DNA from: an uncultured Clostridia bacterium
GTDB taxonomy: Bacteria; Bacillota; Clostridia; TANB77; CAG-508
NCBI GenBank assembly: GCA_949746675.1
Contig: CATKDT010000049.1
Location: 1,214-65,213 of the forward strand
Reading direction: 5' to 3'
Length of the DNA stretch: 64,000 nucleotides
Part shown: in pieces, positions 12,980 to 35,282 of the stretch
Layout of the letters: every line of letters starts with the position of its first letter
Position numbering within the stretch: position 1 is the stretch's first letter
The notes under the pieces: model-generated
Database searches by the model: none
What the model was told of the DNA's origin: nothing
What the model saw: only the letters and a program-made list of their open reading frames with translations
Position numbers and translations under genes: made by a program

Positions 12980-13007
12980 TATTTATTTTCCCTTCATATA
13001 TTATGTA

Positions 13008-16111: not shown

Positions 16112-16176
16112 CATTAATTTGGTATATCTTAGCAATTACCTTTTTGTGTTAATTTTTTATTTTGATTTAATATTTT

Positions 16177-16731: not shown

Positions 16732-16757
16732 TTTGTCTCCTTAAGACTTTTTATTAA

Positions 16758-17900: not shown

Positions 17901-17939
17901 ATTAAATTAGCCCTTTCTCTTAAGTAAATAACACAAATA

Positions 17940-19469
17940 TTATTGTGTTATTTTACTTATTATTTTGTTTATTGGCTTTTTAAATAATTCTTTTTCTTCT
18001 TCATTCGTTCCATATCTTCCCATAATTAGTATATATATTGTGACATATATACATGCATCTATGCACCACATAATTTTATTATTAATTGGCATAATCTTTT
18101 TTAATAACATTCCTAATATAAACGTTATAATTACTGGTATAGTCATTTCAAATATATTTTTCCAAAATTTTGGAATATCTATACGTGTCTTTTTATAATA
18201 GAAGATATTCATAAAGATTATTTGTCCAATTATTATTGATAGTGCTGTTCCTATTGCTGCTCCAACTCCTCCCCATAATTTAGCTAGGAATATTGTAATT
18301 ATTAAGTTAAATATTGCAAAGAACAGTAACACCATTACTCTAAACTTATATTGATTTTTTGCCTGTATTATACTTAAACCTACATTCTGTATCAATGGTA
18401 CAGTTAATGGTAACATTAATATAGCTCCTATAATATATGCTTCACTATACTCTGGTCCTACCCACATAAGGTTAATGAATTCTTGTCCAAATAGCAAATA
18501 TGCTGACATTATTAATGCCATAACTAAGTATTGTATTCTACCAGTTTTTATAAATACTTTTGTAAATTCTTCATCACTTGCCTTATTCTGTTCCATTCGT
18601 GCAACTTTAGGAAGCATTACTCCAGAAATTGCTGTTGAAAATCCTAAATACATTTGATTTAATTGACTTGCAACTGAGTATATTGCAACTACCACAGTAC
18701 CACTTACAACACCTAATATAAATTGATCAACTTGCCAATTTATTTTATCCATAATACTATTTAAGAATATCCATACAGAATATGCCATTATCTCTTTTAA
18801 TAATTTTTTGTCTAACTTTCCAAAACGTAATTTAGTATGTAATTTTTTCTTACAGAAAAATGTATTTAATAAAAGTGTTCCTATATTTAATATAGTTGTT
18901 AAAACAACTAATGCTATTGCTCTATATCCAAATTTTAATAATATTAACATTATGATTGGATTTAATATAATTCTCATTAAATTCAAAGTTTTTGCAAATA
19001 CAAATTTTTCATACGCTGTTATTATTGATGAAAATACACTAAATGGAAATGTTATAGCCAAATTTAATGTTAATATTCCCATTAAAATTTTAGCTTTTTG
19101 TAATTCTTCTACTGTCATTGATTTTCCAAATAGCTTGTCTACATTAGCCCATAAAATTACACCTATAATTCCTGCAATTATACCTATTAAAATATATATT
19201 AAAAAAAACATTCCATGTAACTTTGCTTCTTTTGCTTTATCTTTCTTTTCTCTATATCTTGCAGTGTATATAACTATTGCATTACCAAATCCAAAATCTA
19301 ATATTGTTAAATATGATATTATTGATGTTACTAACGAATATAGACCATATTCTGATTGTCCTAAAGTTTTTGTTAACACTGGTGTATACACTATACCTAT
19401 TAACATATTGGATATTATTGTTATATATGATAATACTGCTCCTACTTTTATCTGGCTATTTTCTTTCAA
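17940..19469 (-). CDS. Wzx-type oligosaccharide flippase (MOP/PST family)
   Basis: 509 aa with ~14 TM helices. Confidence 0.75.
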   Translation of the reverse strand: MKENSQIKVGAVLSYITIISNMLIGIVYTPVLTKTLGQSEYGLYSLVTSIISYLTILDFGFGNAIVIYTARYREKKDKAKEAKLHGMFFLIYILIGIIAGIIGVILWANVDKLFGKSMTVEELQKAKILMGILTLNLAITFPFSVFSSIITAYEKFVFAKTLNLMRIILNPIIMLILLKFGYRAIALVVLTTILNIGTLLLNTFFCKKKLHTKLRFGKLDKKLLKEIMAYSVWIFLNSIMDKINWQVDQFILGVVSGTVVVAIYSVASQLNQMYLGFSTAISGVMLPKVARMEQNKASDEEFTKVFIKTGRIQYLVMALIMSAYLLFGQEFINLMWVGPEYSEAYIIGAILMLPLTVPLIQNVGLSIIQAKNQYKFRVMVLLFFAIFNLIITIFLAKLWGGVGAAIGTALSIIIGQIIFMNIFYYKKTRIDIPKFWKNIFEMTIPVIITFILGMLLKKIMPINNKIMWCIDACIYVTIYILIMGRYGTNEEEKELFKKPINKIISKITQ

Positions 19470-20538
19470 TTTTGTTCTCCTCTACATTTAGTGCTTTATT
19501 TAAAAATTCATTTGTTCTCTTTCTTTCTTCTTCTAGTATTTCATATACATTACTATAATCACATTTTAGTTGTTCTTGTAATATCTTATTATTATATCTC
19601 CTGTCTTGCAAATGAAACTTATTTAATAAAGTATCTATCCTTGAATTCATACTTACATTATTATCTTCCCTTTCAAATACTATGAATGGTCTATTATAAA
19701 GTATTGAAAATACACAAGCATGGAATGAATCTGTACATATTAAAAATGCATTTTTTTCTAAATATAAAAATTCTGCTGGTCCAGTTTTATAAAATGGTGA
19801 ATTGCTATCTAACATATTAATTATCTTACATCCATTTTCTTTTGCAATCCTATCTATTTCATTTTTTCTTTTCTCTGATAATTCACCTAGAAAATAATTT
19901 AATATATATTTATCTGTTTTTAATTGTTCTGGCTTATTAGATACATTGTCCCATTCCTCAGCTGTTAATAACATCGTTGGGTCAACTAATACCTCAACAT
20001 CTTTTCTCCCTGTTAAGTCTTCTACTATTTTCTTTCCTGCTTCTTCTCTGACCGATATTTCTTTAAACTGCATTAATGCATCTTTTGCTTTCTTCTTGTA
20101 TTGTTCTGGTAATTCGCTAATCCCAAAGCTCGCAGAAAATGAAATTTTGTTTGTGCAATCAATATTACTTAATAAATCAAAGTTAGTTAATCGTCCTATT
20201 TTTGGATTCCAAACTTGATCACTTCCAACAATAAGATAATCAAATTCATTTAGATTATTAAAACCATTTAAATAAAATACTTTTTTTGTTTCTTCTATAT
20301 TTTCATTAAATTTAGCAAAGCACATTTTCCTTTCATTTTTTATTATAATTGTTTTAATTCTTGATAATAGATAATGTAATTTGTTTTTTATACTTAAACT
20401 TTTATTTAAATATCCAATATTTTTTATGGTTTTTACATCATAATAGTACTTCATAATATATTGTTGTACAGCATAATTCTGTAATCTATTTCCATAATTA
20501 TTGTAATCGTTTATAGTTATAATTCCTATCTTTTTCAT
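19456..20538 (-). CDS. polysaccharide pyruvyl transferase (CsaB/WcaK-like)
   Basis: MKKIGIITINDYNNYGNRLQNYA N-terminus. ~360 aa. Confidence 0.65.
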   Translation of the reverse strand: MKKIGIITINDYNNYGNRLQNYAVQQYIMKYYYDVKTIKNIGYLNKSLSIKNKLHYLLSRIKTIIIKNERKMCFAKFNENIEETKKVFYLNGFNNLNEFDYLIVGSDQVWNPKIGRLTNFDLLSNIDCTNKISFSASFGISELPEQYKKKAKDALMQFKEISVREEAGKKIVEDLTGRKDVEVLVDPTMLLTAEEWDNVSNKPEQLKTDKYILNYFLGELSEKRKNEIDRIAKENGCKIINMLDSNSPFYKTGPAEFLYLEKNAFLICTDSFHACVFSILYNRPFIVFEREDNNVSMNSRIDTLLNKFHLQDRRYNNKILQEQLKCDYSNVYEILEEERKRTNEFLNKALNVEENKIERK

Positions 20539-20554
20539 ATCTTCTCCTAAATTA

Positions 20555-21580
20555 TCATTGAAATGTTCTAAGTCTTAGTTTTTCTTTTATTTTGTATATT
20601 ATACGTAATAGTCTTTTTGCTTTAAACATTAATAATATATAGTTTATTCTTTCATATAAGTTAAGATTTTTATATATTCCTGATAATCCATTATATTCTT
20701 TATAATTCTTTATAATTTCTTCTATTTCATTTATTTCCTTTTTTTTGTTTTCTTGTCTTACTGCATTTGAAATTAATGTTGTATACATTCTAAATCTATT
20801 TTTTTTGTATCTAATATTTGTTAATTTCTCTAACTTATATTTATTTATTATTTCTATTAACTTATTATGATTATATAAATTTTTTGCCAAAGCATCTTCA
20901 GTATATTTATTCAATGCACTAGTTTGATTTCTATAATATTTGTACAAATTCTTGTCTATAATCGTTATATTGTGGGCATTACAATATAATTCTATCAAAA
21001 ACATGAAATCCTCACTTAATTGAATTTTCTCATCGAATGTTATACCAGTATCTTTTAAAAATGATATCTTTATTAGATTTCGCCAAACAGTTCCCCATAT
21101 AATAATATCATCATTCTTTTCTTTTCCAATCATTCTGGCAACCAGTTCTTTTTTTATTTCATCATTATTTAAATTTGTTTTGTTAATTGGTAAACTAATG
21201 TTTTTTTCTGTATTATTATAAACTTCAACATAATTACATATTGAAATATCCGCATTTTCTTCTACTATATTTTTATGCATCTCCTCTAAATAATTTGGCA
21301 TATATTCATCATCACTATCTATAAAAGTTATGTAGTCTCCTGTAGCCTTATATATTCCTATATTCCTTGCAGTTGATACTCCTTTGTTTTTTTGAGTTAT
21401 AACTATCATTTTATTATTTATATTTTCTTGTATTATTTCTAATGATTTATCTGTAGAACCATCATCTATAAATATTGCTTCATAATTTTCATATGTTTGA
21501 CTTTTTATACTTTTTATACATCTCTTAATATACTTTTCTGCATTATATACTGGTATTATAATACTAATCTTATCATTCAT
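20555..21580 (-). CDS. glycosyltransferase family 2
   Basis: IIIPVYNAEKYI...DDGSTD and a DSDD motif. Confidence 0.85.
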   Translation of the reverse strand: MNDKISIIIPVYNAEKYIKRCIKSIKSQTYENYEAIFIDDGSTDKSLEIIQENINNKMIVITQKNKGVSTARNIGIYKATGDYITFIDSDDEYMPNYLEEMHKNIVEENADISICNYVEVYNNTEKNISLPINKTNLNNDEIKKELVARMIGKEKNDDIIIWGTVWRNLIKISFLKDTGITFDEKIQLSEDFMFLIELYCNAHNITIIDKNLYKYYRNQTSALNKYTEDALAKNLYNHNKLIEIINKYKLEKLTNIRYKKNRFRMYTTLISNAVRQENKKKEINEIEEIIKNYKEYNGLSGIYKNLNLYERINYILLMFKAKRLLRIIYKIKEKLRLRTFQ

Positions 21581-22463
21581 ATTTCATAATCCTCCACAAA
21601 ACTGATGGAATATATAACAATATAGAATAAATTTTAGATGGAGTATTTTTTAATATACTTTTTTTGTTTGATATGCATATACTGTTAACATTAATTATTG
21701 TTTTTATTCTATTTTTTATTTTTATAGAAGTTTTATACTTTTTTAAGAATTCATATCTTAATTTAAATAATAACATACTTGTATTAAAGTTTCTCTTCCA
21801 GTTATTGTATATATTTTTTGTTAACCCATCTTCTTGATATTCAGAATAATATATACTATTATCATTGATATATAATAACTTACCTTTTTTTGATAAGTTT
21901 ATATACAATATCTCTTCACTTGCAAAATTCTCACCTTTTATCTCAGGAAAATAGTTGTTTTTTAGTACTTCTGTTTTTAATAAAATTCCTGTTTCTATAT
22001 TTTTATTTATCATATATTTAAAATCTGGTATATCTAACTTTACATTGTTTAAATTAATATTATTATATTTTTTTTCAATTCCGTTTCTCGGAAAAAAGAC
22101 TCCTAAAGTTTTATCGTCCTGTTCTATGTTGCTACCTTTTATATAATTATATAACTTTTCCACTGCTTGTTTATCTAGTATATCGTCACTGTCAACACAT
22201 ATAAAATATTCCGTTTTGCATTCTCTTACGGCTTTATTATGTGCAATATATTTTCCAGAATTTTCTTGATATATATATTCTATTTCAATTTCATTTTGTT
22301 CTTTTAGTAATCCTATATATTTATCAGTTTCATCATTCGAGCCATCATCTATAATAAGCCATACAAAATTTTTATTTATTTGTTGCCTTAACGAATTATA
22401 TAGTCTTACTAACAGATCTTTTCTGTTAAATGTTGGTGTAAATATCGTTATTTTGTTTTTCAT
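21573..22463 (-). CDS. glycosyltransferase family 2
   Basis: IFTPTFNR...IDDGSND and a DSDD motif. Confidence 0.85.
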   Translation of the reverse strand: MKNKITIFTPTFNRKDLLVRLYNSLRQQINKNFVWLIIDDGSNDETDKYIGLLKEQNEIEIEYIYQENSGKYIAHNKAVRECKTEYFICVDSDDILDKQAVEKLYNYIKGSNIEQDDKTLGVFFPRNGIEKKYNNINLNNVKLDIPDFKYMINKNIETGILLKTEVLKNNYFPEIKGENFASEEILYINLSKKGKLLYINDNSIYYSEYQEDGLTKNIYNNWKRNFNTSMLLFKLRYEFLKKYKTSIKIKNRIKTIINVNSICISNKKSILKNTPSKIYSILLYIPSVLWRIMKYE

Positions 22464-23526
22464 CTTTATTCACCTCAATATTATTAAATAGTGGAATTGC
22501 TAATAAAATTAATGATATATTCATTGATATGCTTGGAAAATAACTTTCTGTTAAACATGTTATATTAAAAAATAATAGTAACATCAGCTCCTTATTCATT
22601 TTTTTCTTGTATAAACTTCTACTCGTTTTTATTTCTAAAATACTTATTATTACAAAAGCAATAATTCCTCCCTCATATAAAAGAGAGATGTATCCATTAT
22701 CAATATTTACATATTTGTTTACTTCTGTAGTTCCAATAATACCTGGTCTCACTTTAGTAAGAATTGTATTATTATATTCTATTCTTCCAGAAAGAATAGA
22801 ATCTATTTTGTTAATAAATTCAATTTTTCCAAACATTAAACTTATAAATATAGTAATTAAAAATAAATATATATATGCATTTTTAGAAAACCATAATATA
22901 ATTTTTTTCATAATTCCTATATGCTTTTCTAAAAACACAATAATTAAGCACATAATTACAACCCAGTATCCTGTTCTTGAATATGTATATGAATACATAA
23001 TATAGTTTAATACTGCTATTGCTCCAATACTAAAAATATTAATCTTTTCATAATATAAATATAAATATAATATAGCTATTATCATAAACATTGCATGTGT
23101 TTCATTTGGATGTGAGTATCCAAATGTTTGTCTATTTAAAAATTGTCCATCTCTATAAAATAAAAATTGTGTATTCTCTATTATTCCAATAGAAGAACCC
23201 AAAATCATCATAACAAAAGTTATAATTTTTGCATAAAATACTACCTTTATTATATGCTTTAAATCTACATTTTTTAATCCACATAAAGTGATAACAGTAA
23301 ATAAAATTGTAGTAGTTTTCCCTATTAAATAGTCTAATATACCTATAGACAATAAACTAACCATTACTGCAATTTCTTTTTTAGAATACTTTTCCTTAAT
23401 TACTTTGTTAAATAAAATTATGCATCCAAATCCAAATGCAACTATATAAAATTTACTGCCTGCATTAAATCCTAATCCTTTTAGAACTGTTATTATTACT
23501 ATATAAATATCTATTATTTTTATCAT
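22426..23526 (-). CDS. Wzy-type repeat-unit polymerase / O-antigen ligase-like membrane protein
   Basis: 366 aa, ~10 TM helices. Sits between the GTs in a Wzx-containing locus. Confidence 0.6.
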   Translation of the reverse strand: MIKIIDIYIVIITVLKGLGFNAGSKFYIVAFGFGCIILFNKVIKEKYSKKEIAVMVSLLSIGILDYLIGKTTTILFTVITLCGLKNVDLKHIIKVVFYAKIITFVMMILGSSIGIIENTQFLFYRDGQFLNRQTFGYSHPNETHAMFMIIAILYLYLYYEKINIFSIGAIAVLNYIMYSYTYSRTGYWVVIMCLIIVFLEKHIGIMKKIILWFSKNAYIYLFLITIFISLMFGKIEFINKIDSILSGRIEYNNTILTKVRPGIIGTTEVNKYVNIDNGYISLLYEGGIIAFVIISILEIKTSRSLYKKKMNKELMLLLFFNITCLTESYFPSISMNISLILLAIPLFNNIEVNKDEKQNNDIYTNI

Positions 23527-24230
23527 TTTATCTTCAGCACCTTTTTAATAAATTGTTTTGTAGGAATTAAATAATATCCTATTTTTCTTATAATTTTATT
23601 GTTTGATTTCCAGCTTGCTGTATAATGATGTATTGAATATGTGTTTTGTGTTATTTTCAACTTGTTTGTCCCCATAACTTTTGGGCAGAAATATTCAATT
23701 GTATATATTATCATTCCATTAATATTTTGGATTTCATTAATTTCTTTCATTCCTTTTTCTTTTAATAATTTACTTGTTACTTCTACACATATTATTTTTC
23801 TAAAGTTTCCATTTTTATCTCTTGGATCATAAGTTTCATAATATTCTTTATTTTCTTTTATAATCGGATTGCCTTTTTTAGCTCCAAATCCTAATCCTGT
23901 CGCAACCTTTCCAACTTGCTCCATTCCCATATATCCATCACAATTTAACAATTCATCTAATGGCTTTAGTAGTTCAACATCTGTATCTAAATATATTCCA
24001 CCTTCATTATATATAACATCTAATCTCACATAATCTGTTAAGAATGCATATTTTTTATTTTCATAAGTATATTTTACATATTGATTTTTATTTATATCAT
24101 AATTATTTTCATTCCATTGTATTATCTCATAATCAGGACAATATTTTTTCCAGCTTTCTATACATTTTTTTGCTTCATTTGGAAGTTCTTTTCCTCCAAA
24201 CCAACAATAATGTATTTTCTTTGGTATCAT
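23523..24230 (-). CDS. glycosyltransferase (GT32-like, DXD sugar-binding region)
   Basis: IPKKIHYCWFGG...WNENNYD, the Gly_transf_sug signature. Confidence 0.7.
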   Translation of the reverse strand: MIPKKIHYCWFGGKELPNEAKKCIESWKKYCPDYEIIQWNENNYDINKNQYVKYTYENKKYAFLTDYVRLDVIYNEGGIYLDTDVELLKPLDELLNCDGYMGMEQVGKVATGLGFGAKKGNPIIKENKEYYETYDPRDKNGNFRKIICVEVTSKLLKEKGMKEINEIQNINGMIIYTIEYFCPKVMGTNKLKITQNTYSIHHYTASWKSNNKIIRKIGYYLIPTKQFIKKVLKIK

Positions 24231-24244
24231 AATTATTCTCCTTT

Positions 24245-24739
24245 TTAAAACAATTCTTCTACTTCCATCTTTAGTTTCTCTATAAATCTCTCATTATTGC
24301 TTTGTAAGTTTTGTGACATAACTTCTATCTTTTTATCATAATTTAAAATACTATCAATAATTTCTTCTTCCGTTTTAGCGACTATTATATTGTTCATTCT
24401 TTCTCTAACAGCTTCTGTAAATTCAACTTGATGGTCATTAACATGTTCGCTATATTCTAATTTACGTGGCACAACAATTGGAATTTTTCCTATTGTTAGT
24501 GGCATAATAAAGCTTGCTGGGCCACCATGTGTAATTATAATTCTGGCTTCCCTAATATATTTTTGCATAGCTTCATATGAAATTAATTTGTAACTTTCAC
24601 AGTTTTTGGGTTCATATTCTGTATATCCCTTTTGAATTATAACTTTTTCATTTATCTTATTTTCTGCAACCATTTTATCAATACATTTTAATAATCTATC
24701 AAATGGTTGCTCGTGAGTACCTACTGTAACAAAAATCAT
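24245..24739 (-). CDS. Alg13-like (Glyco_tran_28_C) glycosyltransferase subunit
   Basis: MIFVTVGT start. 164 aa. Confidence 0.75.
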   Translation of the reverse strand: MIFVTVGTHEQPFDRLLKCIDKMVAENKINEKVIIQKGYTEYEPKNCESYKLISYEAMQKYIREARIIITHGGPASFIMPLTIGKIPIVVPRKLEYSEHVNDHQVEFTEAVRERMNNIIVAKTEEEIIDSILNYDKKIEVMSQNLQSNNERFIEKLKMEVEELF

Positions 24740-24756
24740 AATTGCTCCTTTATTTT

Positions 24757-25230
24757 TTAAAATATACTTCCTAAATTTATTGCTTTTTTATATACTTTCT
24801 TCATCTCTTCCCATTGTACAATAAACTTGTCTGTTACTGGATATACTAACTTACCTGTAAGAGTCGATTTATCTATTCTATCAAATACTTCTATATATAC
24901 TGTTTTTGCTTTCATTAATTTTCCAATATAAAAAAATGGTACTGCAACTGCTGCTCCCGCAGATATTATTAAGTCTGGTTTCTCTTTTTTTAAAACTTTA
25001 ATTGCTAAAAATGTATTTTTAATTAAGTTTTTTATATTTCTATTTGTAGGAAAATAGCACTTGTATACTTTTTCATCTTTTAATAAACTTCTTGCATCTT
25101 CTTTATCAAAAGTAACCCAAAATCTATCGTTTTCTTCCCATAATGGTTTAAGCATATACAAATGAGCTAGATGTCCTCCTGAAGAACCCACTAAACAAAT
25201 TTTAAAATCCTTTATAGGTTTTCTTGACAT
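24757..25230 (-). CDS. Alg14-like glycosyltransferase subunit
   Basis: ICLVGSSGGH motif. 157 aa. Paired with the Alg13-like gene. Confidence 0.75.
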   Translation of the reverse strand: MSRKPIKDFKICLVGSSGGHLAHLYMLKPLWEENDRFWVTFDKEDARSLLKDEKVYKCYFPTNRNIKNLIKNTFLAIKVLKKEKPDLIISAGAAVAVPFFYIGKLMKAKTVYIEVFDRIDKSTLTGKLVYPVTDKFIVQWEEMKKVYKKAINLGSIF

Positions 25231-25268
25231 ATTCTTTCTCCTTATGCATCTATTAATATATTAAATTT

Positions 25269-26393
25269 CTACTCTCCATCTCCCTCATGGTATCCTGTCT
25301 TTGTTTCAATACTATTGCTTATTGTCTTTATCTCATCAGGAACAATATATTCTTGATTATCAAATACCTCTTTATGTAACCTTTCAACATTACTCTCAAG
25401 TGTACAAGGTATACCATACCATGCATCTAAAGTCTTGCCTTTTGTGTCATAAGGGAAACCTATTCCCTCGCCAAAACTTACTTTTATAGCAGTTGGTATT
25501 AGTGATAAAATATCATTTGTTGATATATTAGTTTTTACATAAGGTAATACTGAGTTTGCTAATGTTTTTAATTGTGATAAACTTTGTGTTTTAGCCTTGG
25601 CAACAATAGCCTCAATAACTGCTCTTGTTCTTTCTGCCCTTCTGTAATCTCCAGCGTCTTTTCTGATACGAGCATAAGTTACAGCTTGTACACCATCAAC
25701 AGTTTGCTCTCCAGATCTTGTTATATATTTTGCCTTTTTTCCAGCAACTCTAGCGGTTTCAGCAATGTATTCATTTATGTAATTTATTTCTGATTGTTTT
25801 ATGTTAAGTGTTACTCCTCCTAATTGGTCTACTGCTGTTGCAACTGCTTGAAAATTTACTGCTACATATTCTTTTATGTTTAAATCTAAATTTGTATTAA
25901 GTGCTAATAATGCATTTTGTGGTCCACCATAAGCATAAGCATGTGTTATCTTATCTAATCTATTTTTACCTTTTTCTTTTATTTGTAAATATGTGTCTCT
26001 ATATACAGAAATAAGCTTTACCTCGTTTGTCTTTTCATTTATACTTGCTATTACTATACAATCACTTCTGTTTCCTGATCCATAGTCATTTTCTCTACTA
26101 TCTATTCCAAGTAAAGCTATATTTCTGTAGCCTTTTAAGTTCTTTTCTGATACTGTATCTATCCCTATCTGTGAGGTATCAATCGCTTCATGATTTATCT
26201 TTCCTAGAATTTCTTCAACAAAATTCCATCCACCTGCAATTACACCTGCAACTATTATTAGCAATATAATTAATATCAATAATATAGCTTTTGTGACTCT
26301 ATGTCCTTTGTATCTTTTATTTTTCTTTTTAGATTTTTTACCTTTTTTTGACATATACCTCATCCCTTTCGCTTTGCTCAAGACACACCTCAA
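25269..26393 (-). CDS. LytR-CpsA-Psr (LCP) family glycopolymer ligase
   Basis: Basic N-terminus, single TM, LCP domain. The true start is probably an internal ATG (MSKKGKK, ~26354). Confidence 0.8.
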   Translation of the reverse strand: MRCVLSKAKGMRYMSKKGKKSKKKNKRYKGHRVTKAILLILIILLIIVAGVIAGGWNFVEEILGKINHEAIDTSQIGIDTVSEKNLKGYRNIALLGIDSRENDYGSGNRSDCIVIASINEKTNEVKLISVYRDTYLQIKEKGKNRLDKITHAYAYGGPQNALLALNTNLDLNIKEYVAVNFQAVATAVDQLGGVTLNIKQSEINYINEYIAETARVAGKKAKYITRSGEQTVDGVQAVTYARIRKDAGDYRRAERTRAVIEAIVAKAKTQSLSQLKTLANSVLPYVKTNISTNDILSLIPTAIKVSFGEGIGFPYDTKGKTLDAWYGIPCTLESNVERLHKEVFDNQEYIVPDEIKTISNSIETKTGYHEGDGE

Positions 26394-26441
26394 AATGAAA
26401 TGTGCCTTTTTCGCCCTTAATTTTGTAATTATGTCACCCTT

Positions 26442-27332
26442 TTATTTCTTATCTTCATTAAAAAATTCATTTATTTGTTTTAATACTTTATATGTATCCT
26501 CACTTATTTCTTTTGATGAATTTTTAGTTTTTTTAACACTTATATTTTTGAATAAGTCATCTGATTCTTTATCTAAAAAGGTTGATGGCATTGCTGCTGT
26601 CCTTTTAGGAACATATTTAGTTTTATCTTGTTTGTCCTTTGAGTTATAATAATATGCTTGTTCATATTCTCTAGATTCCATTGGCATCTTATTTAATATA
26701 ACCCCTAATATTTTTCCACCAACATTTTCAATATTAGTAATAATTCTTTTTAATCCTTCTTTTTTAGTTTCTTCATGTGCTGTAACTATAAGTGTAAAAT
26801 CAACTATTCTTGATAATATTAACGAATCTGTTACTAATTGACTTGGTGTTCCATCTATTATAACTATATCACAAACTTCTTTTGCTATATCTAATAACTC
26901 AGTCATTTGTGGTAATATTAACAACTCTGATGGATTTGGTGGTACACTTCCTGATGCTATTAAATACAAGTTTTTTACTGATGTCTTTTGTATATATGAT
27001 GTTATATCTTTATTTATAATTCTATTTCCATCATCATCTACATTTGATAGATAATTAGAAAGTCCTGGCTTTTGTGATACTTTAAATATATTACTTTGCC
27101 TTCCTTTTCTCATATCAGCATCTATAAGTAAAACTCTTTTACCAGCTTGTGCAAATGCAACTGCTAAATTAGATGATATCCAACTTTTTCCTTCTTCTGC
27201 ATATGCTGATGTAATAAGTATTAGTTTTGCTTCTTGCTTTGCATCCATAAATTGTATATTTGTTCTTATTGTTCTAAATATCTCAGAAATTGGTGATTTT
27301 GGATCTTTTAATACTATTAAATCTTGTGTCAT
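26442..27332 (-). CDS. BY-kinase (second copy)
   Basis: Walker A AEEGKSW and a C-terminal Y-rich region. Confidence 0.9.
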   Translation of the reverse strand: MTQDLIVLKDPKSPISEIFRTIRTNIQFMDAKQEAKLILITSAYAEEGKSWISSNLAVAFAQAGKRVLLIDADMRKGRQSNIFKVSQKPGLSNYLSNVDDDGNRIINKDITSYIQKTSVKNLYLIASGSVPPNPSELLILPQMTELLDIAKEVCDIVIIDGTPSQLVTDSLILSRIVDFTLIVTAHEETKKEGLKRIITNIENVGGKILGVILNKMPMESREYEQAYYYNSKDKQDKTKYVPKRTAAMPSTFLDKESDDLFKNISVKKTKNSSKEISEDTYKVLKQINEFFNEDKK

Positions 27333-28052
27333 TTATTTTCTTCCTCTTTTCTTAGATTTTTTTGTATTTCCTTCACAAATTGGTATTGTTGCCAATACAG
27401 GTTTATGATATATTCTTTCTACATCTTCTATTGTTTTTATTGTAGTATCAAACATATTTAAAACTACAACATAACCTATAGAGATAATTATTCCTACTCC
27501 TGTAAATATTAGCATATTTTTCTTTTTATTTACATTTGATGGGGAATTATTAGGCTCAGCTTTATCTACTACTTGCACATTTTCTATTTTATATAATTCT
27601 TCTTGCATTTCTTTTATGAATATACTTGCTATCTCATTTGCTATATCTGCTGCAAGTTTTGGATCAGAATTTGTTACTGTTATTTCTATTAATTCTGTAT
27701 CATTAATTACGTTAACTCGTATATTTCTTTTTAGTACATCTTCATTAATATCAATATGTAAATTAGCTATTGCTGGTCTTAGTATTCTTTTACTTTTTAT
27801 TAATTCTCTATAAGTTGACACCAGTTTTGAATTTACTCTTATTTCCATTTCTGTTGATGATTCAATACTTCCTGACATGTTGTCATTATTTGATGATGCC
27901 AACAACAAACTTGTTGATGCACTATATACTGGCTTTACGAATTTAGTTATATATATTAATCCTATAATCATAAATAATAATATGATTATTGCTATCTGTA
28001 TTTTTTTGCTCCAAAATATTTTGAATAATTCCATTAAATCTATTTCTTCCAT
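27333..28052 (-). CDS. Wzz/CpsC chain-length determinant (second copy)
   Basis: 2 TM helices. Abuts the kinase. Confidence 0.8.
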   Translation of the reverse strand: MEEIDLMELFKIFWSKKIQIAIIILLFMIIGLIYITKFVKPVYSASTSLLLASSNNDNMSGSIESSTEMEIRVNSKLVSTYRELIKSKRILRPAIANLHIDINEDVLKRNIRVNVINDTELIEITVTNSDPKLAADIANEIASIFIKEMQEELYKIENVQVVDKAEPNNSPSNVNKKKNMLIFTGVGIIISIGYVVVLNMFDTTIKTIEDVERIYHKPVLATIPICEGNTKKSKKRGRK

Positions 28053-28170
28053 TGTTCTACCCTTCTATTATTATATTATTGTTTATAAATATTATCATTA
28101 TTCCTTTAAAAATGTCAAATTTTGTATTTATGTAAACTCTTAATTTGTGCTATTTGTTTATATTCTATTA

Positions 28171-28200
28171 TTTTTCAATATTTTTCAACATTTTTCACTA
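28171..28200 (-). promoter_or_regulatory. three exact-phase (10 bp) direct repeats TTTTTCAAYA (minus: TGAAAAA x3) in divergent EPS promoter region
   Basis: tttttcaata tttttcaaca tttttcacta at 28171, 28181 and 28191. Confidence 0.4.
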
Positions 28201-28316
28201 TAAACTTTTTAGATTATATATCTTTTATAATAAAAATTCAATAAATTTACTTCTAGTTCTTGTAAATTTTTTTTATTTATTTTATAATAGAGTATATTAA
28301 TTTAAGGAGGAAACAA

Positions 28317-30458
28317 ATGAATAACGAAAATAATGATGATTTTTTACCAGGTGTTGGTCCTATAGATAATAATATTCCTAGTTCACCTGATAACTTTGAC
28401 CCTAATATGAATGGTGGTTTTGATCCCAATATAAATGTTAATAACTTTGACCTTAATATGAATGCTGGTGTCGACCCTAATATAAATAATAATAACTTTG
28501 ATCCTAATATGAATGCTAATAATTTTGATCCTAATACAAATCTTGGTTTCAATCCTAATGTAAATAATTTCGATCCTAACATGATGCAAAATCAGTTTGA
28601 CCCAAACATGGGACAAGCTCCTTTTGATATGAATCAAAATCCTAGTATGGATCCAAATATGGTACAACCACCTTTTGATATGAACCAAAATTTTAATATG
28701 GATCAAACTCAATTTGACCCTAATATGAATGCTAACAATTTTGATCCTAATGTAAATAATAACTTTGACCCTAATGCAAATAATTTCGATCCTAACATGA
28801 TGCAAAATCAATTTGACCCAAACATGGAACAAGCTCCTTTCGATATGAATCAAACTCCTAACACGGATCCAAATATGATACAATCTCCTTTTGATATGAA
28901 CCAAAACCTTAATATGGATCAAAATCAATTTGACCCTAATATAATTAATAATAACTTTGATCCTAATATGAATCTTGGTTTCGATCCTAATGTAAATAAT
29001 AACTTTGACCCTAATGCAAATAATCTCGATCCTAACATGATGCAAAATCAATTTGACCCAAAGATTGGACAAGCTCCTTTTGATATGAATCAAAATCCTA
29101 ACATGGATCCAAATATGGTACAACCACCTTTTGATATGAGCCAAAACATTAATATGGATCAAAACCAATTTACTCCTAATATGAACAGTGAATTTAATCC
29201 TGATGTGAATAATAATTTTGAACAGGACACTATTTCTTCTAATTATGCTGAGGATTTTGAAAGAAATTGGATGGGATCAATCTATGATAAAGCACATTCT
29301 AAGAAGTTTAACTTCTGTGCCGCATTTTTTGGACCAGCATATCTATTTTATAGAAAAGTATATCTTACAGGTGGTTTAACAGCATTAATACTTATTATTA
29401 TAAACATTATAATTTCATTATTAAAATTAAATAATGTAGGACTTATTCTAGGAATTAATGCCATTATTATGTTAATATATTTCTTTGGCTTAGGATTTGG
29501 ATTTTACCCTATTTATAGAGATTTTGTACACAAACAATTTAATAAATATAAAAAACAAATTCCTGATAATAACCAACTAATTGCACTTGCAAACAAAAAA
29601 GGTGGTACTTCAATTTTAGCTTTAATAGTTTATTACATTGCTAATTCTGTTGTAGTTACCATTATGGTATATGCAATGTTTGCCTCACTGATGTCTGATT
29701 TATTTGGTAAATTACCTCCTCAATCAAACATTACTAGCAATAATAATATTGAAAATAACACTAATGTTATATCTAATGAAACTCAAGATGAAGCAACATT
29801 CTCATTTACAGATGGTTATGAATTAATATATCCAGATAGTACTTGGGTTGTTGGAGCTGATAAAAAATCATTAATTAAGGGTGCCTATACACTAACATAT
29901 ACTGTATCATATAAAGCAAGTGATCTAGGTGTTACTGATATGTCTACTGCTGAGGGACGATCATCTATATTATCAATTATTAATAACTCAGTAACTAGCT
30001 TAGCCACTACTAATAATCTTCAAATGGATCCTAACGATAACTTTGTATCTTCTAATGGAACTTATTATACTTATATTAATTTATCAAGTGATACAGAAAC
30101 TACACGTTATTACTTTGTTCTTCTACCAGCTGAAGAAACATTGTTCCAATTTGAACTAAAAATAAATGATACAACAGTTCAGTCAGATACTCATTTAGAG
30201 ATTACTAAAATTTTAACAAAAATTTCTAATACTTCTTCTGCTAATAACTTACCTAATGGAAATACAGTTACCGATAATACAATTACAAATGATACAGTTA
30301 CTGATAACTCAACTACAAATAACACAGTAACAGGAGACAATAATGCTGTTTCAAATAACATTACATCAAATGAAGTTAATAATATGGTTTCAGAAAATAA
30401 TACTACAACACCAAATAATACTTCTATATCAAATGTTCTTAGAAACACAAGTATATAA
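28317..30458 (+). CDS. Asn/Pro/Met-rich tandem-repeat membrane protein with central 2-TM (DUF2628-like) segment and Thr/Asn-rich C-terminal extracytoplasmic domain
   Basis: AGGAGG SD. ~35 copies of FDPN(M/V)N arranged in three ~72-80-aa super-repeats. The TM segment contains FNFCAAFFGPAYLFYRK. Confidence 0.7.
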   Translation: MNNENNDDFLPGVGPIDNNIPSSPDNFDPNMNGGFDPNINVNNFDLNMNAGVDPNINNNNFDPNMNANNFDPNTNLGFNPNVNNFDPNMMQNQFDPNMGQAPFDMNQNPSMDPNMVQPPFDMNQNFNMDQTQFDPNMNANNFDPNVNNNFDPNANNFDPNMMQNQFDPNMEQAPFDMNQTPNTDPNMIQSPFDMNQNLNMDQNQFDPNIINNNFDPNMNLGFDPNVNNNFDPNANNLDPNMMQNQFDPKIGQAPFDMNQNPNMDPNMVQPPFDMSQNINMDQNQFTPNMNSEFNPDVNNNFEQDTISSNYAEDFERNWMGSIYDKAHSKKFNFCAAFFGPAYLFYRKVYLTGGLTALILIIINIIISLLKLNNVGLILGINAIIMLIYFFGLGFGFYPIYRDFVHKQFNKYKKQIPDNNQLIALANKKGGTSILALIVYYIANSVVVTIMVYAMFASLMSDLFGKLPPQSNITSNNNIENNTNVISNETQDEATFSFTDGYELIYPDSTWVVGADKKSLIKGAYTLTYTVSYKASDLGVTDMSTAEGRSSILSIINNSVTSLATTNNLQMDPNDNFVSSNGTYYTYINLSSDTETTRYYFVLLPAEETLFQFELKINDTTVQSDTHLEITKILTKISNTSSANNLPNGNTVTDNTITNDTVTDNSTTNNTVTGDNNAVSNNITSNEVNNMVSENNTTTPNNTSISNVLRNTSI
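28389..29217 (+). repeat. in-frame tandem DNA repeats (~216-240 bp unit x3, built from an 18-bp FDPNMN sub-repeat)
   Basis: Near-identical blocks begin at 28563, 28779 and 29019. Confidence 0.8.
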
Positions 30459-30463
30459 AATTT

Positions 30464-30489
30464 AAGAGAACTTACTATGAAGTTCTCTT
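30464..30489 (+). terminator. terminator hairpin (aagagaactt/aagttctctt)
   Basis: 10-bp stem followed by a weak T-tract. Confidence 0.4.
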
Positions 30490-30546: not shown

Positions 30547-30578
30547 AGTGAGCCTAAAATTGGCTCACTATATTTTTT
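30547..30578. terminator. bidirectional terminator (agtgagcc/ggctcact) between convergent genes
   Basis: T-runs on both sides. It terminates asnS on the minus strand. Confidence 0.55.
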
Positions 30579-30580: not shown

Positions 30581-31972
30581 TTAAAATTCACAGTTTTTTG
30601 GTGTTCTTGGGAATGGTATCACATCACGAATATTTTGCATTCCTGTAACATACATCATCAATCTTTCAAATCCTAATCCATACCCAGCATGTTCTACACT
30701 TCCATATTTACGTAAGTCCATATACCACCAGTAATCTTCTAAATTTAGTCCTAATTCTTCAATACGTGCTTTTAATTTTTCGTAATCATCCTCTCTTTGA
30801 CTTCCACCAATTAGCTCTCCTATTCCTGGAACTAAAAGGTCTGATGCTGCTACTGTTTTTCCATCAGAATTTTGTTTCATATAAAATGCTTTTATTTCCT
30901 TTGGATAATCTGTTACAAACACAGGTCTTTCAAATATCTTTTCACTTAAATATCTTTCGTGTTCAGTTTGTATATCTACTCCCCATTCAACTTTATATTC
31001 AAATTTATCATTGTTTTTTTCAAGTTCTTTTATTGCATCTGTATATGTTATTCTTCCAAATGGTTTATTTATTGTTGTTTCTAATTTTTCTTTCAAGCCA
31101 TTTGCTATAAATTTATCAAAGAATTCTATTTCTTCTGGTGCATTTTCCAAAACATATTGTACTACATATTTTATCATCTCTTCTGCATTGTCTAAATAAT
31201 CAGTTAATGTTGCAAAGCACATTTCTGGCTCTATCATCCAAAACTCTGCTGCATGTTTTACTGTATTTGAATTCTCGGCTCTAAATGTTGGTCCAAATGT
31301 ATAAATATTTCTAAACGCTTCTGCATATGTTTCACCTTCTAATTGACCACTAACTGTTAAGTGTGAATTTTTTCCAAAGAAATCCTTTGTAAATTCTACC
31401 TCTTTTTTGTCATCAATTGGAATGTTTTTAAAATCAAATGATGATACACTAAACATTTCTCCTGCACCTTCGCAATCAGAACCTGTTATGATTGGAGTAT
31501 GAACATACACAAATCCCTTTTCTTGAAAAAACTTATGAATTGCATATGATAATAAACTACGTACTCTAAATACAGCACTAAATGTGTTTGTTCTTGGACG
31601 AAGATGTGCTTGTGTTCTTAAGAATTCAAAACTTGTATTCTTTTTTTGTATAGGATAATCATTGTCTGATAAGCTATATATTTCAATTTCTTCTGCATGT
31701 ATTTCAAATGCTTGCTTAGCATTTTCTGTTTTTACTAGTTTTCCTTTTACTATTATTGATGAACTTATAGTTAATTTACATATGTCAGCAAAGTTAGATA
31801 ATTTATCTTCAAATACTATTTGTATATTTTTGAAAAATGAACCATCATTTACTTCTATAAATCCAAAAGCTTTTGAATTTCTAACTGTCTTTACCCAACC
31901 TGAAATAGTTATCTCTTTATCGATATATTCATTTGTATTACGATATAATTCTTTTACTAATATTGATTTCAT
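30581..31972 (-). CDS. asnS: asparagine--tRNA ligase
   Basis: 463 aa class II aaRS. Anticodon-binding OB N-terminus. Clear AsnRS similarity. Confidence 0.95.
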
Positions 31973-32010: not shown

Positions 32011-32355
32011 CTACATTATATCTTTTATAGCATCTCCTATAATTTTATTAACATCATACATTAATTTATTAAATGCTATTTCATTATCAAAATATTCTTT
32101 TATATCTTTATTTTCAATAAGTACATTATATAACCTTGCCAATTTTACTTTTTTATCTTCTTCATCCACTTCTTTATTGTCTTTTCTTTTTAATTCAATT
32201 ACTTGAACTTCTTGCTTTAGTTTTTCAAACTCTTCTATTAATTCTTTTTTTTCTGGAATTGACATTAGTGCTTCTTTAGATTTCTTTAATGCTTTATATT
32301 GCATAGAATTTCTTATTTCTTCTGCTAGTCTGTTAGCTGTATCATAAATTTCCAT
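32011..32355 (-). CDS. small helical protein (YlbF/YmcA-like?)
   Basis: 114 aa, charged coiled-coil. Weak family assignment. Confidence 0.35.
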   Translation of the reverse strand: MEIYDTANRLAEEIRNSMQYKALKKSKEALMSIPEKKELIEEFEKLKQEVQVIELKRKDNKEVDEEDKKVKLARLYNVLIENKDIKEYFDNEIAFNKLMYDVNKIIGDAIKDIM

Positions 32356-32524
32356 TTTTCTCCCGCCTCCTTATGTTATGTCCACTTGTATTATAATAAT
32401 TATACTGATTTTATAATTATGCCTACTTGCATTATGTTAACTTTATAAAATCAGTTTTATGTTTAATCTCAATATTAAATTTTTCTATTAGTTTATTTTC
32501 ATTATAATATAAACTTATTTTCAA

Positions 32525-33817
32525 CTATGCATAAGCATTTCTTTTTCTGAAAGTAAGTAGATTTGATAAATCCTTTGCAGGATTTGAGCTTTGTTCTGCC
32601 TTATTTGCTCTTTCTTGCATAATCTTTTCAGCTTGCTTTTGTGCTTCTGTCTTACAAATAGCTTGTTCATATACATAATGTGTATCTTGTGCAATTTTAT
32701 TCCAGTTATATAAATCTTTAACTTTTTTAACAGCATTTTTTGATATTGTATCACATAATTTTGCGTCAAATAATAGTGCAAGTATCGAATCTGCTATTGA
32801 ATTACTGTTACCAGCATAACTCTTCATTCCATTTACTCCATGGTCAACTATTTCATTTAATCCTCCAACATCTGATACAACTGTTGGTATTCCAGCAAGC
32901 ATTGCTTCAAGTGCTACTATTCCAAATGGCTCATATGTACTTGGAAACACTGCCATATCAGCACATTTATACATTTTTTGTACTTTTGTAGAGTCACAAT
33001 ATCCTGCAAAATATACCTTATTTTCAATTCCTAAATTTTTAACTTCTTGCTTTAATTCATCTATCATTCCACCTTTTCCACATATTACAAGCTTAGAATC
33101 ATGATAGTTCTGAAGAACCTTTGGCATTGCTCCTATTAAATTTTGAATTCCTTTTTCATAAACTAAACGACCAACATATAGTATTATTTTTTCATTATCC
33201 ATTGCAAATTGTCTTCTAAAATCATAGTCTCTCTCAATACCAGAAAAATTATTCAAATTTACCCCATTTGGTATTACATTTATTTTTTCATAAGGTAGTC
33301 CAAATATTCTTTGTAAATCGCCTTTCATAAAGTTGCTATTTACTATTACTTCAGTTGATTCATATGTTAATAGCCATTCTGAATCATTTATGTATCTTTG
33401 TGTTTCATCATGTATTCCAGAATTTCTTCCATTTTCAGTTGCATGTATTGTTGATACTAAAGGGATATCAAATGAATTTTTTAATGCTTTTGCTGAGTAT
33501 GTTACTAACCAATCATGTGCATGTATTACATCAAACTTTCCATTTTTTGTAATTATCTCTGTTGCTTTAGCTACCATATTAAAATTTAGTTGCATTATCC
33601 AATCTATAAAATTATTAGGATGTATCATATAGTTATCTACTCTATAAACATCTACACCTTTGTCATTTTCATAATATGGTGTATTTCCATCTCTATACGT
33701 TATTACAGTTACATCATGTCCATCATTTATCATCCTATGCGATAAATCATGTACAACTCTAGCTATTCCTCCTACAATTCTTGGTGGATACTCCCATGTT
33801 AACATTAAAATTTTCAT
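32525..33817 (-). CDS. GT4 glycosyltransferase, glycogen/alpha-glucan synthase-like
   Basis: MKILMLTWEYPPRIVGGIARVV N-terminus and the EX7E region. Confidence 0.75.
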   Translation of the reverse strand: MKILMLTWEYPPRIVGGIARVVHDLSHRMINDGHDVTVITYRDGNTPYYENDKGVDVYRVDNYMIHPNNFIDWIMQLNFNMVAKATEIITKNGKFDVIHAHDWLVTYSAKALKNSFDIPLVSTIHATENGRNSGIHDETQRYINDSEWLLTYESTEVIVNSNFMKGDLQRIFGLPYEKINVIPNGVNLNNFSGIERDYDFRRQFAMDNEKIILYVGRLVYEKGIQNLIGAMPKVLQNYHDSKLVICGKGGMIDELKQEVKNLGIENKVYFAGYCDSTKVQKMYKCADMAVFPSTYEPFGIVALEAMLAGIPTVVSDVGGLNEIVDHGVNGMKSYAGNSNSIADSILALLFDAKLCDTISKNAVKKVKDLYNWNKIAQDTHYVYEQAICKTEAQKQAEKIMQERANKAEQSSNPAKDLSNLLTFRKRNAYA

Positions 33818-34022: not shown

Positions 34023-35282
34023 TTGCCAAAGTCAAGTATTGAAAAAACAAACGATATTGAAGAAAAGAAAGTAACTCGTACTAAAAAGGCTACTACTTCA
34101 AAAAAATCTGATACAAAGGTTAGTTCTAAAACTGACTCTAAAAAAGTTGAACCTAAGACTACAGTAAAAGCCAAAAAGGATACTACTACTAAAACTAAAA
34201 AATCAACTACTAAAGTAGCTGATAAAGCAGTTGTTAGTGAAGAACCTAAAAAAGCAAAAGCTACAACAAAAAGAAAAACAACTACTAAGGCAACTACAAA
34301 TGCCTCTAAAAAAGTTGATGCAAAGGTTAGTTCTAAAACTGCATCTAAAAAGGTTGCTTCTAAAAAAACTGAGACTAAGGCTACTTCCAAAAAGGCTGAA
34401 AGCAAGACAACAAAAAAGATTGAATCTAAAACTACTTCTACTAAAAAAGTTGAACCTAAGGCTACAGTAAAAGCCAAAAAGGATACTACCACTAAAACTA
34501 AAAAGGCAACTACTAAAACTAAGAAAAAAGTTGAAGACACTCTTCCTAAAGTAAAAAAAGAAGTTAAGAAAACTACAACTAAATCCAAGAAAACAACTAA
34601 AAAAGTTGAACCTAATGTTAAGGATAAAGTAAAAAAGATTGTTACAAAAGCTAAAGAAAAAATTAACAATCTTACATCAACCTTTTTAGATATAGTTGAA
34701 TATTATGACTTACCTTATAGATATAACAAAACAGTTGTTAAAGTTCTAGCTCAAGATCCTAATACTCTATTTGTTTATTGGGATTTGAATGACAATGATT
34801 TACAATACTTTAAAGAAATGTATGGTAATAATTTCCTTTATATAACTAAGCCAGTTCTAGTTGTACATAATATTACTGATGGCTACTCATTTGAAATTGA
34901 TATAAATGATTTTGCAAATAATTGGTACATTCATGTAAATGACACTAAATGTAGATATGTTGTTGAACTAGGTAGACGTCCAAACCAAAGTGATGAAATA
35001 TTTAATATTCAAAATAATGAACCTACCCAATTTGTAAAAATATTATCTTCTAATGAAATTGAAAATCCTAATGACCATGTTTTATATTATGAAAATAAGC
35101 AAAAATTACATTTTAAAAATGTAAAAACTAACGCAATTACAACAAGAATAATTGATAATAAACATAAAAAAGATTTTGCAGAAATTTATAAATACTTTAG
35201 TTTTGATGAAACTTCTGATAATAATAAATTTGATTTTGAAAATCCTAGTTCAAATAATCCAACTTCAAATGTTATGAAATAA
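34023..35282 (+). CDS. DUF4912 protein with Lys/Thr-rich histone-H1-like repetitive N-terminal tail
   Basis: TTG start with an AGGAGG SD. N-terminal ~220 aa are KKxTTK repeats. The C-terminal ~190 aa (YYDLPYRYNKT...YWDL) match DUF4912. Confidence 0.7.
   Translation: MPKSSIEKTNDIEEKKVTRTKKATTSKKSDTKVSSKTDSKKVEPKTTVKAKKDTTTKTKKSTTKVADKAVVSEEPKKAKATTKRKTTTKATTNASKKVDAKVSSKTASKKVASKKTETKATSKKAESKTTKKIESKTTSTKKVEPKATVKAKKDTTTKTKKATTKTKKKVEDTLPKVKKEVKKTTTKSKKTTKKVEPNVKDKVKKIVTKAKEKINNLTSTFLDIVEYYDLPYRYNKTVVKVLAQDPNTLFVYWDLNDNDLQYFKEMYGNNFLYITKPVLVVHNITDGYSFEIDINDFANNWYIHVNDTKCRYVVELGRRPNQSDEIFNIQNNEPTQFVKILSSNEIENPNDHVLYYENKQKLHFKNVKTNAITTRIIDNKHKKDFAEIYKYFSFDETSDNNKFDFENPSSNNPTSNVMK
34100..34520 (+). 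repeat. imperfect in-frame tandem repeats encoding K/T-rich tail
   Basis: Blocks repeat at ~207 and ~303 bp offsets (for example 34144 versus 34447). Confidence 0.6.

Follow-up and report, generated by a model that had tools for sequence, protein, structure and literature searches.

The stretch of DNA considered here, hereafter the window, comprises 64,000 nucleotides from an uncultured Clostridia bacterium (contig CATKDT010000049.1 of assembly GCA_949746675.1), and our subject is a single gene within it, on the plus strand at 28317..30458, for which we use the working name X. It encodes a membrane protein of 713 amino acids (aa) in which a long, acidic repeat region is followed by a membrane core of DUF2628 type, a domain that is predicted to lie outside the cell, and a polar tail. 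The gene, its expression signals and the parts of its product are given below, together with the predicted local distance difference test score (pLDDT) of the AlphaFold2 models where it applies.

28260-28288, plus strand: promoter-like site TTGTAA-17-TATAAT, a consensus match only
28304-28310, plus strand: Shine-Dalgarno site AAGGAGG, a consensus match, 6 bases 5' of the ATG at 28317
28317..30458, plus strand: gene X, open reading frame (ORF) of 713 aa, membrane protein
28317..29243, plus strand: repeat region, aa 1-309; acidic, rich in Asn, Pro, Asp, Met, Phe and Gln; predicted disordered and cytoplasmic
28563..28778, plus strand: super-repeat 1, 216 bp (72 aa), found by Tandem Repeats Finder; 91% DNA identity to super-repeat 2
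28779..29018, plus strand: super-repeat 2, 240 bp (80 aa)
29019..29210, plus strand: super-repeat 3, partial; 84-86% DNA identity to super-repeats 1 and 2 over the common part
29244..29516, plus strand: DUF2628-type core, aa 310-400 (Pfam PF10947; AlphaFold2 pLDDT 74-94; invariant residues in alignment A1)
29517..29606, plus strand: Lys-rich loop, aa 401-430, with the conserved QLxxIAxKKGGTS and seven Lys/Arg; predicted cytoplasmic
29607..29696, plus strand: membrane helix 3, aa 431-460 (hydropathy; AlphaFold2 helix at 124-154 of the trimmed sequence)
29697..29792, plus strand: Asn-rich linker, aa 461-492, disordered, pLDDT <50
29793..30230, plus strand: alpha/beta domain, aa 493-638 (146 aa), Mog1p/PsbP-like fold; predicted extracellular
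30231..30455, plus strand: Asn/Thr/Ser-rich tail, aa 639-713, ending in ISNVLRNTSI
30464-30489, no strand assigned: terminator-like hairpin 1, a hairpin prediction
30547-30569, no strand assigned: terminator-like hairpin 2, bidirectional, common to X and the convergent asnS

A first-pass annotation of the locus had described the 713-aa reading frame, a strong Shine-Dalgarno site and a terminator belonging to the gene, and the frame, the ribosome-binding consensus and two hairpins are all found at these positions (4 terminator-like hairpins were found where 0.6 would be expected).

X is a real protein-coding gene under purifying selection. Its frame crosses the repeat region with 0 stops in 954 nt of DNA of 27% GC, compared with 2-78 stops in each of the remaining five frames, and all of the repeat periods and indels are divisible by three. 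The closest relative, which we used for the ratio of nonsynonymous to synonymous substitution rates (dN/dS), is carried by the metagenome-assembled genome MGBC129337 (locus L006), and against it the membrane core and the C-terminal domain have ratios of 0.14 and 0.13, the linker one of 0.21 and the tail one of 0.47. As the flanking genes asnS and GT4 give 0.03-0.04 in the same comparison, the ordered parts of X are under purifying selection yet change several-fold faster than their neighbours. The same disparity is seen in protein identity, which is 79% for X versus 96-97% for asnS and GT4 at L006, and 31-43% for X versus 60-86% for the neighbours at more distant loci.

One antisense frame has merely 2 stops across the repeats, and two antisense ORFs overlap them (28383..29168, minus strand, 261 aa, and 28277..28582, minus strand, 101 aa); both were rejected as genes and are most likely shadows of the repetitive codon pattern. 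Nearly all long ORFs of the window are on the minus strand, X being among the few plus-strand genes. The GC skew is negative over the whole window, and X would be transcribed head-on to replication here if this skew marks the leading strand.

Membrane core and topology

The resemblance of the membrane segment to DUF2628, already suspected in the first-pass annotation, is confirmed by a Pfam match of aa 328-388 to PF10947 (E=3.2e-7) whose score of 31.2 bits exceeds the gathering cut-off of 23. Among the relatives P0002, P0007 and P0010 pass this cut-off as well, and P0006 falls just under it. The core is ordered as an amphipathic-looking helix with the motif WMGxxYDKA, the helix hairpin KFNFCAAFFGPAYLFYRK, and membrane helices 1 and 2, so that X has the two-helix hairpin of DUF2628 (aa 349-368 and 374-397) after an FNW..AF..G..Y..YRK motif. 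An AlphaFold2 model of aa 310-638, built from an alignment of 8 sequences (mean pLDDT 80), shows a juxtamembrane helix carrying the invariant WMG..Y..A...KFN, followed by a helix-break-helix (CAAFFG / AYLFYR), a membrane helix 2 that continues into the Lys-rich loop, and a compact alpha/beta domain after the linker. Within the loop the two glycines of KKGGTS (G120 and G121 of alignment A1) are invariant. Hydropathy and the model agree on hydrophobic helices at aa ~349-368, 374-397 and 431-460, and the membrane part of X must therefore be described as three helices and not as the two-helix segment first proposed.

We infer that X is oriented with its N-terminus inside and its C-terminus outside, such that the repeats lie in the cytoplasm and the PsbP-like domain and tail lie beyond the membrane. 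The protein has no signal peptide, and 317 polar, acidic residues come ahead of the first helix. Lys and Arg are concentrated immediately ahead of helix 1 (6 together) and in the loop joining helices 2 and 3 (7), with a single one in the short loop joining helices 1 and 2 and another past helix 3. In one branch of the family (P0064-66, P0069, P0156 and P0008) the DUF2628 three-helix core is swapped for a Lys cluster and a single helix, with the same type of repeat region (including an NPYYNPYF motif) and the C-terminal domain retained; this is a classic design for an N-terminus in and a C-terminus out, and it supports the orientation independently. The missing signal peptide, the distribution of Lys and Arg, the odd number of helices and these single-helix variants together place the repeats in the cytoplasm. 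Since the core is replaced in one branch, it also follows that the constant pairing in this family is that of the repeat tail with the outside domain, and not with DUF2628.

The C-terminal domain

The region beyond the DUF2628 hairpin had been described as a Thr/Asn-rich, probably extracytoplasmic beta domain of ~330 aa. It is instead composed of five parts, namely the Lys-rich loop, helix 3, the linker, the alpha/beta domain and the tail; of these the alpha/beta domain and the Asn/Thr/Ser-rich tail are predicted to be outside, in keeping with that description, and the Lys-rich loop is predicted to be cytoplasmic.

Modelled alone with AlphaFold2 from 34 sequences, the alpha/beta domain reached a pLDDT of 97.2 and a predicted template modelling score of 0.91. 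Its best Foldseek matches in the Protein Data Bank (PDB) were PsbP, the yeast and human Mog1 proteins, and LpqN and MTC28 of M. tuberculosis; further top matches were Salmonella DcrB, the DUF1795 chaperones SciW and EagT6, Tsi3, and Jden 3lyd. These matches had probabilities of 0.9-1.0 and template modelling (TM) scores of 0.4-0.55, at E values of 2e-3 or weaker and identities of 7-15%, and the domain has the antiparallel sheet, flanking helices and element order of the Mog1p/PsbP-like alpha/beta sandwich. In sequence searches, Pfam gave no family for any of the 34 domain sequences (scattered noise only), the DUF1795, DcrB and PsbP families matched none of them at E<=1, and a search of PDB sequences returned nothing meaningful. 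Its near-invariant residues are mostly aromatic or hydrophobic, D96, R105 and P112 being the exceptions.

The final 75 residues of X consist to 64% of Asn, Thr and Ser, and a motif of the form L/I-S/N-x-hydrophobic-hydrophobic stands at the extreme C-terminus of most of its relatives. Some relatives (P0007, P0031 and P0056) have a further ~140-150 aa after the Asn/Thr/Ser-rich tail, ending in GFIKTI(I/Y)I, and this extension may be an additional folded domain.

The repeat region

Residues 1-308 of X are made up of ~35 units with an FDPNxN core, as the first-pass annotation had recognized; however, the units are 7-9 residues long and not the strict FDPN(M/V)N hexapeptides that it had described. 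Asn accounts for 29% of these residues, followed by Pro (13%), Asp (12%), Met (9%), Phe (9%) and Gln (8%). For comparison, the 22 other ORFs of the window contain 7.6% Asn, 2.6% Pro, 2.4% Met and 2.2% Gln, and even over the whole length of X the Asn content is 19.6% against that 7.6%. Phe or Met recurs at intervals of 8-9 residues. A single Lys or Arg is set against 41 Asp and Glu, for a net charge of about -40. Mean hydropathy (0.369, boundary 0.46) puts the region well within the disordered zone of a charge-hydropathy plot. An FLPG motif is present at aa 9-12, and motifs of this type recur in part of the family.

At the DNA level Tandem Repeats Finder reported arrays with periods of 216 bp (28497-29000) and 240 bp (28739-29182), with nested periods of 51, 27 and 24 bp. 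The super-repeats begin at 28563, 28779 and 29019, precisely where they had been placed, with periods of 72 and 80 codons, and the third passes into unique sequence after ~190 bp. They had been called near-identical, a description that does not hold for DNA identities of 84-91%, and the dN/dS among them is 0.27-0.55.

The combined Asn and Gln content of 37% recalls prion-like domains, which have few charges and little Pro; X has 13% Pro and 13% Asp plus Glu in the same residues. The net charge of about -40 and the Pro content weigh against simple self-association or amyloid formation by the repeats, for which phase separation had been among the roles first suggested.

Family, distribution and repeat turnover

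An exhaustive HMMER profile search of 1.84 billion representatives yielded 57 at E<1e-30 (55 when counted by the C-terminal domain), ~50 of which are full length, so that the X family amounts to ~55 clusters at 50% identity. At E<=1e-3 the number rises to 3237; past the first ~57 the matches appear to be DUF2628-only proteins, and the ones ranking within the top 150 are aligned chiefly over the DUF2628 section of the profile. Word-indexed searches had given ~10 relatives (8 matches with the full protein as query, and P0001 only with profile A1), and they gave so few because low-complexity words swamped the selection of candidates. When one genome per species was searched, 23 full-length X loci were recovered, all of them in metagenome-assembled genomes of uncultured Clostridia or Bacillota that, judging by the names of their records, derive from mouse, rabbit, sheep, rumen and further samples of the animal gut.

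No name for a protein of this family was found in any source searched. X had no match in NCBIfam, PADLOC or PHROGs and no homologue was found in viral contigs, hence it shows none of the marks of phage or defence membership sought there. Beyond DUF2628, X was not found to belong to any named family, the outside domain being without a Pfam family. A Pfam match of P0008 to 'suprabasin GxHH' (PF21009) was rejected as a low-complexity artefact.

Every full-length member has an N-terminal repeat region, 37-430 aa long and rich in Asn, Gln, Asp, Met, Pro and Gly, and the distant members P0074 and P0075 have none. The repeat units themselves differ from member to member and include YQDPNQMNPNMG, MGMNDPMNPN, NQMYGQ and QPQEFNNNQFD, among others. 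Even the L006 protein, encoded beside an asnS product 96% identical to that of the window, amplifies a different unit of 22 aa (PNQFDPNMGQVPFDMNQNPxMD) in at least 5 copies, the contig ending inside the array. A 3.3-kb contig from the same strain as the window (L033), with 99.8% identity over 1766 bp, is shorter by exactly 459 bp, or two super-repeats, and would specify a protein of 560 aa. In two other clusters of sequences >90% identical, members have cleanly lost, in frame, 3 or 10 units of twelve residues or blocks of 23 or 46 residues, and some of these losses come with point differences inside the units. Variation in repeat number, which the first-pass annotation had predicted, is therefore well supported across the family by comparison of the sequences of close relatives. 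Exact 26-mer scans of Joint Genome Institute (JGI) metagenomes for the repeats of this species gave no match. Because the arrays grow and shrink and their units are rapidly exchanged for others at an unchanged composition, selection would seem to act on length, valency and composition rather than on sequence.

Short motifs stand inside the variable repeats, namely NPYYNPYFQN near the N-terminus, INPILSQS(L/I)P in the middle of the region, and (F/L)LPG, the last being the motif of the window protein (examples of motif-bearing members are P0006, P0007, P0010, P0033, P0041, P0050 and P0057). They are candidate short linear motifs for the binding of partners. At one locus (L009, 7136-9260) the reading frame of the homologue is interrupted within its N-terminal repeats, leaving two ORFs, of which the upstream one, of 166 aa, has INPILSQNIP; an assembly error that shifts the frame, or slippage of the repeats, could be the cause.

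A proposed role for X

On balance we lean, a little more than half persuaded, towards the reading that X is a lineage-restricted, three-pass membrane protein with its N-terminus in and its C-terminus out, which serves as a scaffold or sensor facing the envelope, its cytoplasmic tail being multivalent. Our confidence is high in the architectural part of this statement and low in the functional part, which is drawn from sequence and models. In such a scheme the outside Mog1p/PsbP-like domain would be a non-enzymatic module that binds a protein or ligand of the envelope, in the manner of DcrB, LpqN and the DUF1795 chaperones, and the cytoplasmic repeats would form a multivalent tail, polyanionic and rich in turns, by which partners are recruited or clustered. 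X would thereby couple an interaction on the envelope side to assembly in the cytoplasm, whether as a scaffold, a landmark or a sensor, and the number of repeats would tune the valency or reach of the tail.

A bolder extension, which we regard as a long shot, is that the tail is a tunable module that forms a sub-membrane cluster or condensate when the PsbP-like domain engages an envelope ligand, with copy number setting the valency. In that reading the conserved C-terminal peptide might be a tethered ligand for the PsbP-like domain. If true, bacteria would here possess a counterpart to receptor-driven membrane condensates.

Several points weigh against the scaffold or sensor proposal. X has no characterized homologue, and the literature on DUF2628 gives no function for it. 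The fold match of the outside domain is weak (best E ~2e-3, 7-15% identity) and indicates a class of fold, not a ligand. The disorder and cytoplasmic location of the repeats are deduced from composition and charge rules, and with a net charge of about -40 and 13% Pro their self-association is questionable without cations or a basic partner. Lastly, repeat counts were taken from short-read assemblies, with ~1.9x coverage in the case of L033, so that some of the differences in number could be assembly collapse.

Alternative explanations and the genomic neighbourhood

The alternative that survives best, which we consider unlikely but deserving of attention, is that X is a variable surface protein (an adhesin, phage receptor or antigen) of which the outside domain and the Asn/Thr/Ser-rich tail are the functional parts, the repeats being a by-product of slippage in an AT-rich genome and the fast evolution a response to host or phage pressure. 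It would account for a divergence far in excess of that of the neighbouring genes (79% versus 96-97% identity at L006) and for the dN/dS of the tail (0.47), and it would suit the restriction of all located members to genomes of uncultured Clostridia and Bacillota, mostly from the animal gut. The best viral structural matches are also phage lipoproteins, one of them named 'host cell surface-exposed'. However, the C-terminal domain is under purifying and not diversifying selection (0.13), no homologue was found in viral contigs, and the composition of the repeats is kept in every full-length member. That this composition includes 13% Pro, an amino acid with GC-rich codons, in a genome of 27% GC argues for selection on the repeats.

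The position of X in the window raises a second alternative, for which the neighbouring features are needed.

23523-28052, minus strand: confirmed genes for Wzz, a CpsD-like P-loop kinase, LCP, Alg14/Alg13-like proteins, and DXD and other glycosyltransferases
28170-28197, minus strand: three TGAAAAAT copies, exact and 10 bp apart, in the divergent intergenic region
30581-31972, minus strand: asnS, asparagine-tRNA ligase (NF003037, 679 bits), convergent to X
32011-33817, minus strand, and 34023-35282, plus strand: block of a ylbF/ymcA-like gene, a 430-aa GT4 (like glycogen synthase and BshA) and a divergent DUF4912-type gene

X could be an accessory of capsule or exopolysaccharide (EPS) formation, acting in capsule anchoring or export and co-regulated with the operon for Wzz, the CpsD-like kinase, LCP and glycosyltransferases through the divergent region that separates them. 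This region, put at 265 bp in the first-pass annotation, measures 264 bp here and does contain the three exactly phased repeats reported for it, TGAAAAAT with a 10-bp phase, of which none would be expected by chance (100 shuffles). They lie midway between the promoter-like sites of Wzz (28118-28091) and X (28260-28288), and could be a phased A-tract bend or a regulator site, serving either promoter. More minus-strand ORFs continue down to ~12 kb, giving a large capsule/EPS-type locus at ~12000-28052 (minus strand), and the GC content around 14-24 kb is 22-25%, compared with 26-29% typical of the window.

The divergent arrangement, the phased repeats and a predicted extracellular domain are thus what speaks for a role in the capsule, and we nonetheless find such a role improbable in view of the relatives. 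At the 17 of their loci where the gene upstream of X could be read, this place is taken 8 times by a divergent recG, 7 times by a co-directional asd and twice by a divergent asnS, and none of these loci showed a Wzz, CpsD or LCP gene. A Wzz operon divergent to X is seen in just the window and L033, and L033 lends no independent support, as it is the same strain at 99.8% identity. The conserved synteny is with recG, asd and asnS, and the tie to the capsule implied in the first-pass annotation, which had itself named synteny conserved elsewhere among the findings that would tell against it, is not sustained. The family instead tracks a housekeeping neighbourhood in which asnS is accompanied, a few kb beyond, by the ylbF-like and GT4 genes. 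Most relatives have the ylbF-GT4-DUF4912 block at 63-97% identity, and it is found in L001, L002, L006, L010, L011, L013 and L023. From these comparisons the position next to a capsule operon is probably a peculiarity of this genome. The genes recG, asd, ychF and hrcA are not in the window, and an insertion of the capsule locus between recG/asd and X could not be shown.

The proximity of asnS invites a further suggestion, that synthesis of the Asn-rich X depends on, or reports, the charging of tRNA-Asn. The gene lies within ~1.2 kb of X at 15 of 21 informative genome loci (among them L003, L009-L012, L015, L017, L018, L020, L021 and L023-L025) and at 3.2 kb in a 16th (L027), and it does so in three orientations: at most loci it is co-directional and downstream of X, the window and L006 have the two genes convergent, and L002 and L019 have them divergent; asd, moreover, is upstream in 7 loci. 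On the other hand, a terminator-like hairpin follows X at 8 of the 12 co-directional loci that were examined, and at most of the 12 asnS is preceded by a promoter-like motif conserved among relatives, TTGTTTATTTAAATAATTTGTTATATAATTGG. A single operon of X and asnS was rejected on account of these hairpins and the conserved promoter between the genes, which in the window are convergent. Rfam identified no T-box or other RNA family near asnS in the window or at 8 relatives' loci, and the adjacency can be explained by inheritance within one clade. From gene order we take it to be inherited synteny, with a small probability that the two genes are linked in function, and we regard a dependence on Asn supply as very unlikely.

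Equally little credence is due to the idea that the N-terminus is outside and the exposed repeats use the Asp and Asn of their DPNxN units to hold Ca2+ or a polymer of the cell wall, a Ca2+- or polymer-binding module having been among the roles first suggested. The region is strongly acidic, and the side chains of its Asp-x-Asn-x-Asn are spaced much like those at positions 1, 3 and 5 in the loop of an EF-hand, but the RTX-type motif GGxGxD is absent from the X sequence (with 9 Gly in 308 aa), as is the 12-residue EF-hand loop DxDxDG..E from the repeats, there being no Glu at loop residue 12. The 317 polar residues without a signal peptide, the Lys and Arg distribution and the single-helix variants all point to an N-terminus inside. 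Finally, that the repeat region is untranslated and the true start lies downstream is hardly credible, since nothing beyond general caution about low-complexity ORFs recommends it, and the Shine-Dalgarno site 6 nt before the ATG at 28317, the 954 nt without a stop, the in-frame indels and the occurrence of such a region in all full-length members speak against it.

Relation to known systems and significance

As a membrane protein with a predicted outside domain, X shares features with several known groups. With DUF2628 (PF10947) it has in common the KFNW-x-AFFFG-x-x-Y-x-x-YRK motif and the two-helix hairpin that follows. Many of the distant DUF2628 matches are short (150-350 aa), and the X subfamily extends this core by 37-430 aa of repeats, the KKGGTS loop, membrane helix 3 and an outside domain without a Pfam family. 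With the Mog1p/PsbP-like proteins (DcrB, the DUF1795 proteins EagT6 and SciW, LpqN, MTC28, and cyanobacterial and plant PsbP) it shares the order of elements in the alpha/beta sandwich. Members of this group have diverse functions, often tied to membrane-anchored complexes, and are usually non-enzymatic binding modules (PMC7716261). The domain of X differs from them in being borne on a polytopic or single-pass N-terminal anchor and not on a lipid anchor, and in its long Asn/Thr/Ser-rich tail.

The Gram-positive landmark and scaffold proteins MapZ and RodZ combine a disordered region in the cytoplasm with membrane helices, a Ser/Thr-rich linker and a domain outside, and X follows a similar overall logic of a disordered or partner-binding region inside, a membrane anchor, and a putative envelope-binding domain outside that is borne on flexible, low-complexity segments. 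Unlike them, X has no division or elongation genes in its neighbourhood and a different repeat composition, and no sequence or fold relationship to either protein was detected. Asn/Gln-rich prion-like or FG-type domains, such as the prion domain of Clostridium botulinum Rho and the yeast GLFG nucleoporins, resemble the X repeats in their 37% Asn plus Gln, in aromatic or Met residues regularly spaced by polar spacers, and, for the former, in the setting of an AT-rich Clostridia genome. The X repeats differ in being tethered to a membrane and in their content of Pro (13%) and Asp (12%) and their net charge (about -40), which disfavour the behaviour of an amyloid or prion. A search of the literature on prion-like, Asn-rich bacterial membrane proteins found nothing relevant. 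The circumsporozoite protein of Plasmodium carries NANP and NVDP repeats (NVDPNANP), and the turn-forming Asn-Pro and Asp-Pro repeats are also seen in X (DPNANN and DPNVNN); this is an analogy of composition only, X being unrelated in organism, location and homology and its units carrying Phe or Met.

The X family is a genuine and unannotated one, of DUF2628 membrane proteins with a new family of outside domain. Its impact is for now on annotation and on the framing of hypotheses. The locus also illustrates that the neighbourhood of a gene in a single genome, here a capsule operon, can mislead. These findings would define a coherent family of ~55 clusters, located so far in uncultured Clostridia and Bacillota, and would add a family of extracellular domains to the Mog1p/PsbP-like fold as well as provide the first structural context for DUF2628. 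Its members would moreover offer a natural series of cytoplasmic low-complexity repeats, and with it a test case for disordered tails at bacterial membranes.

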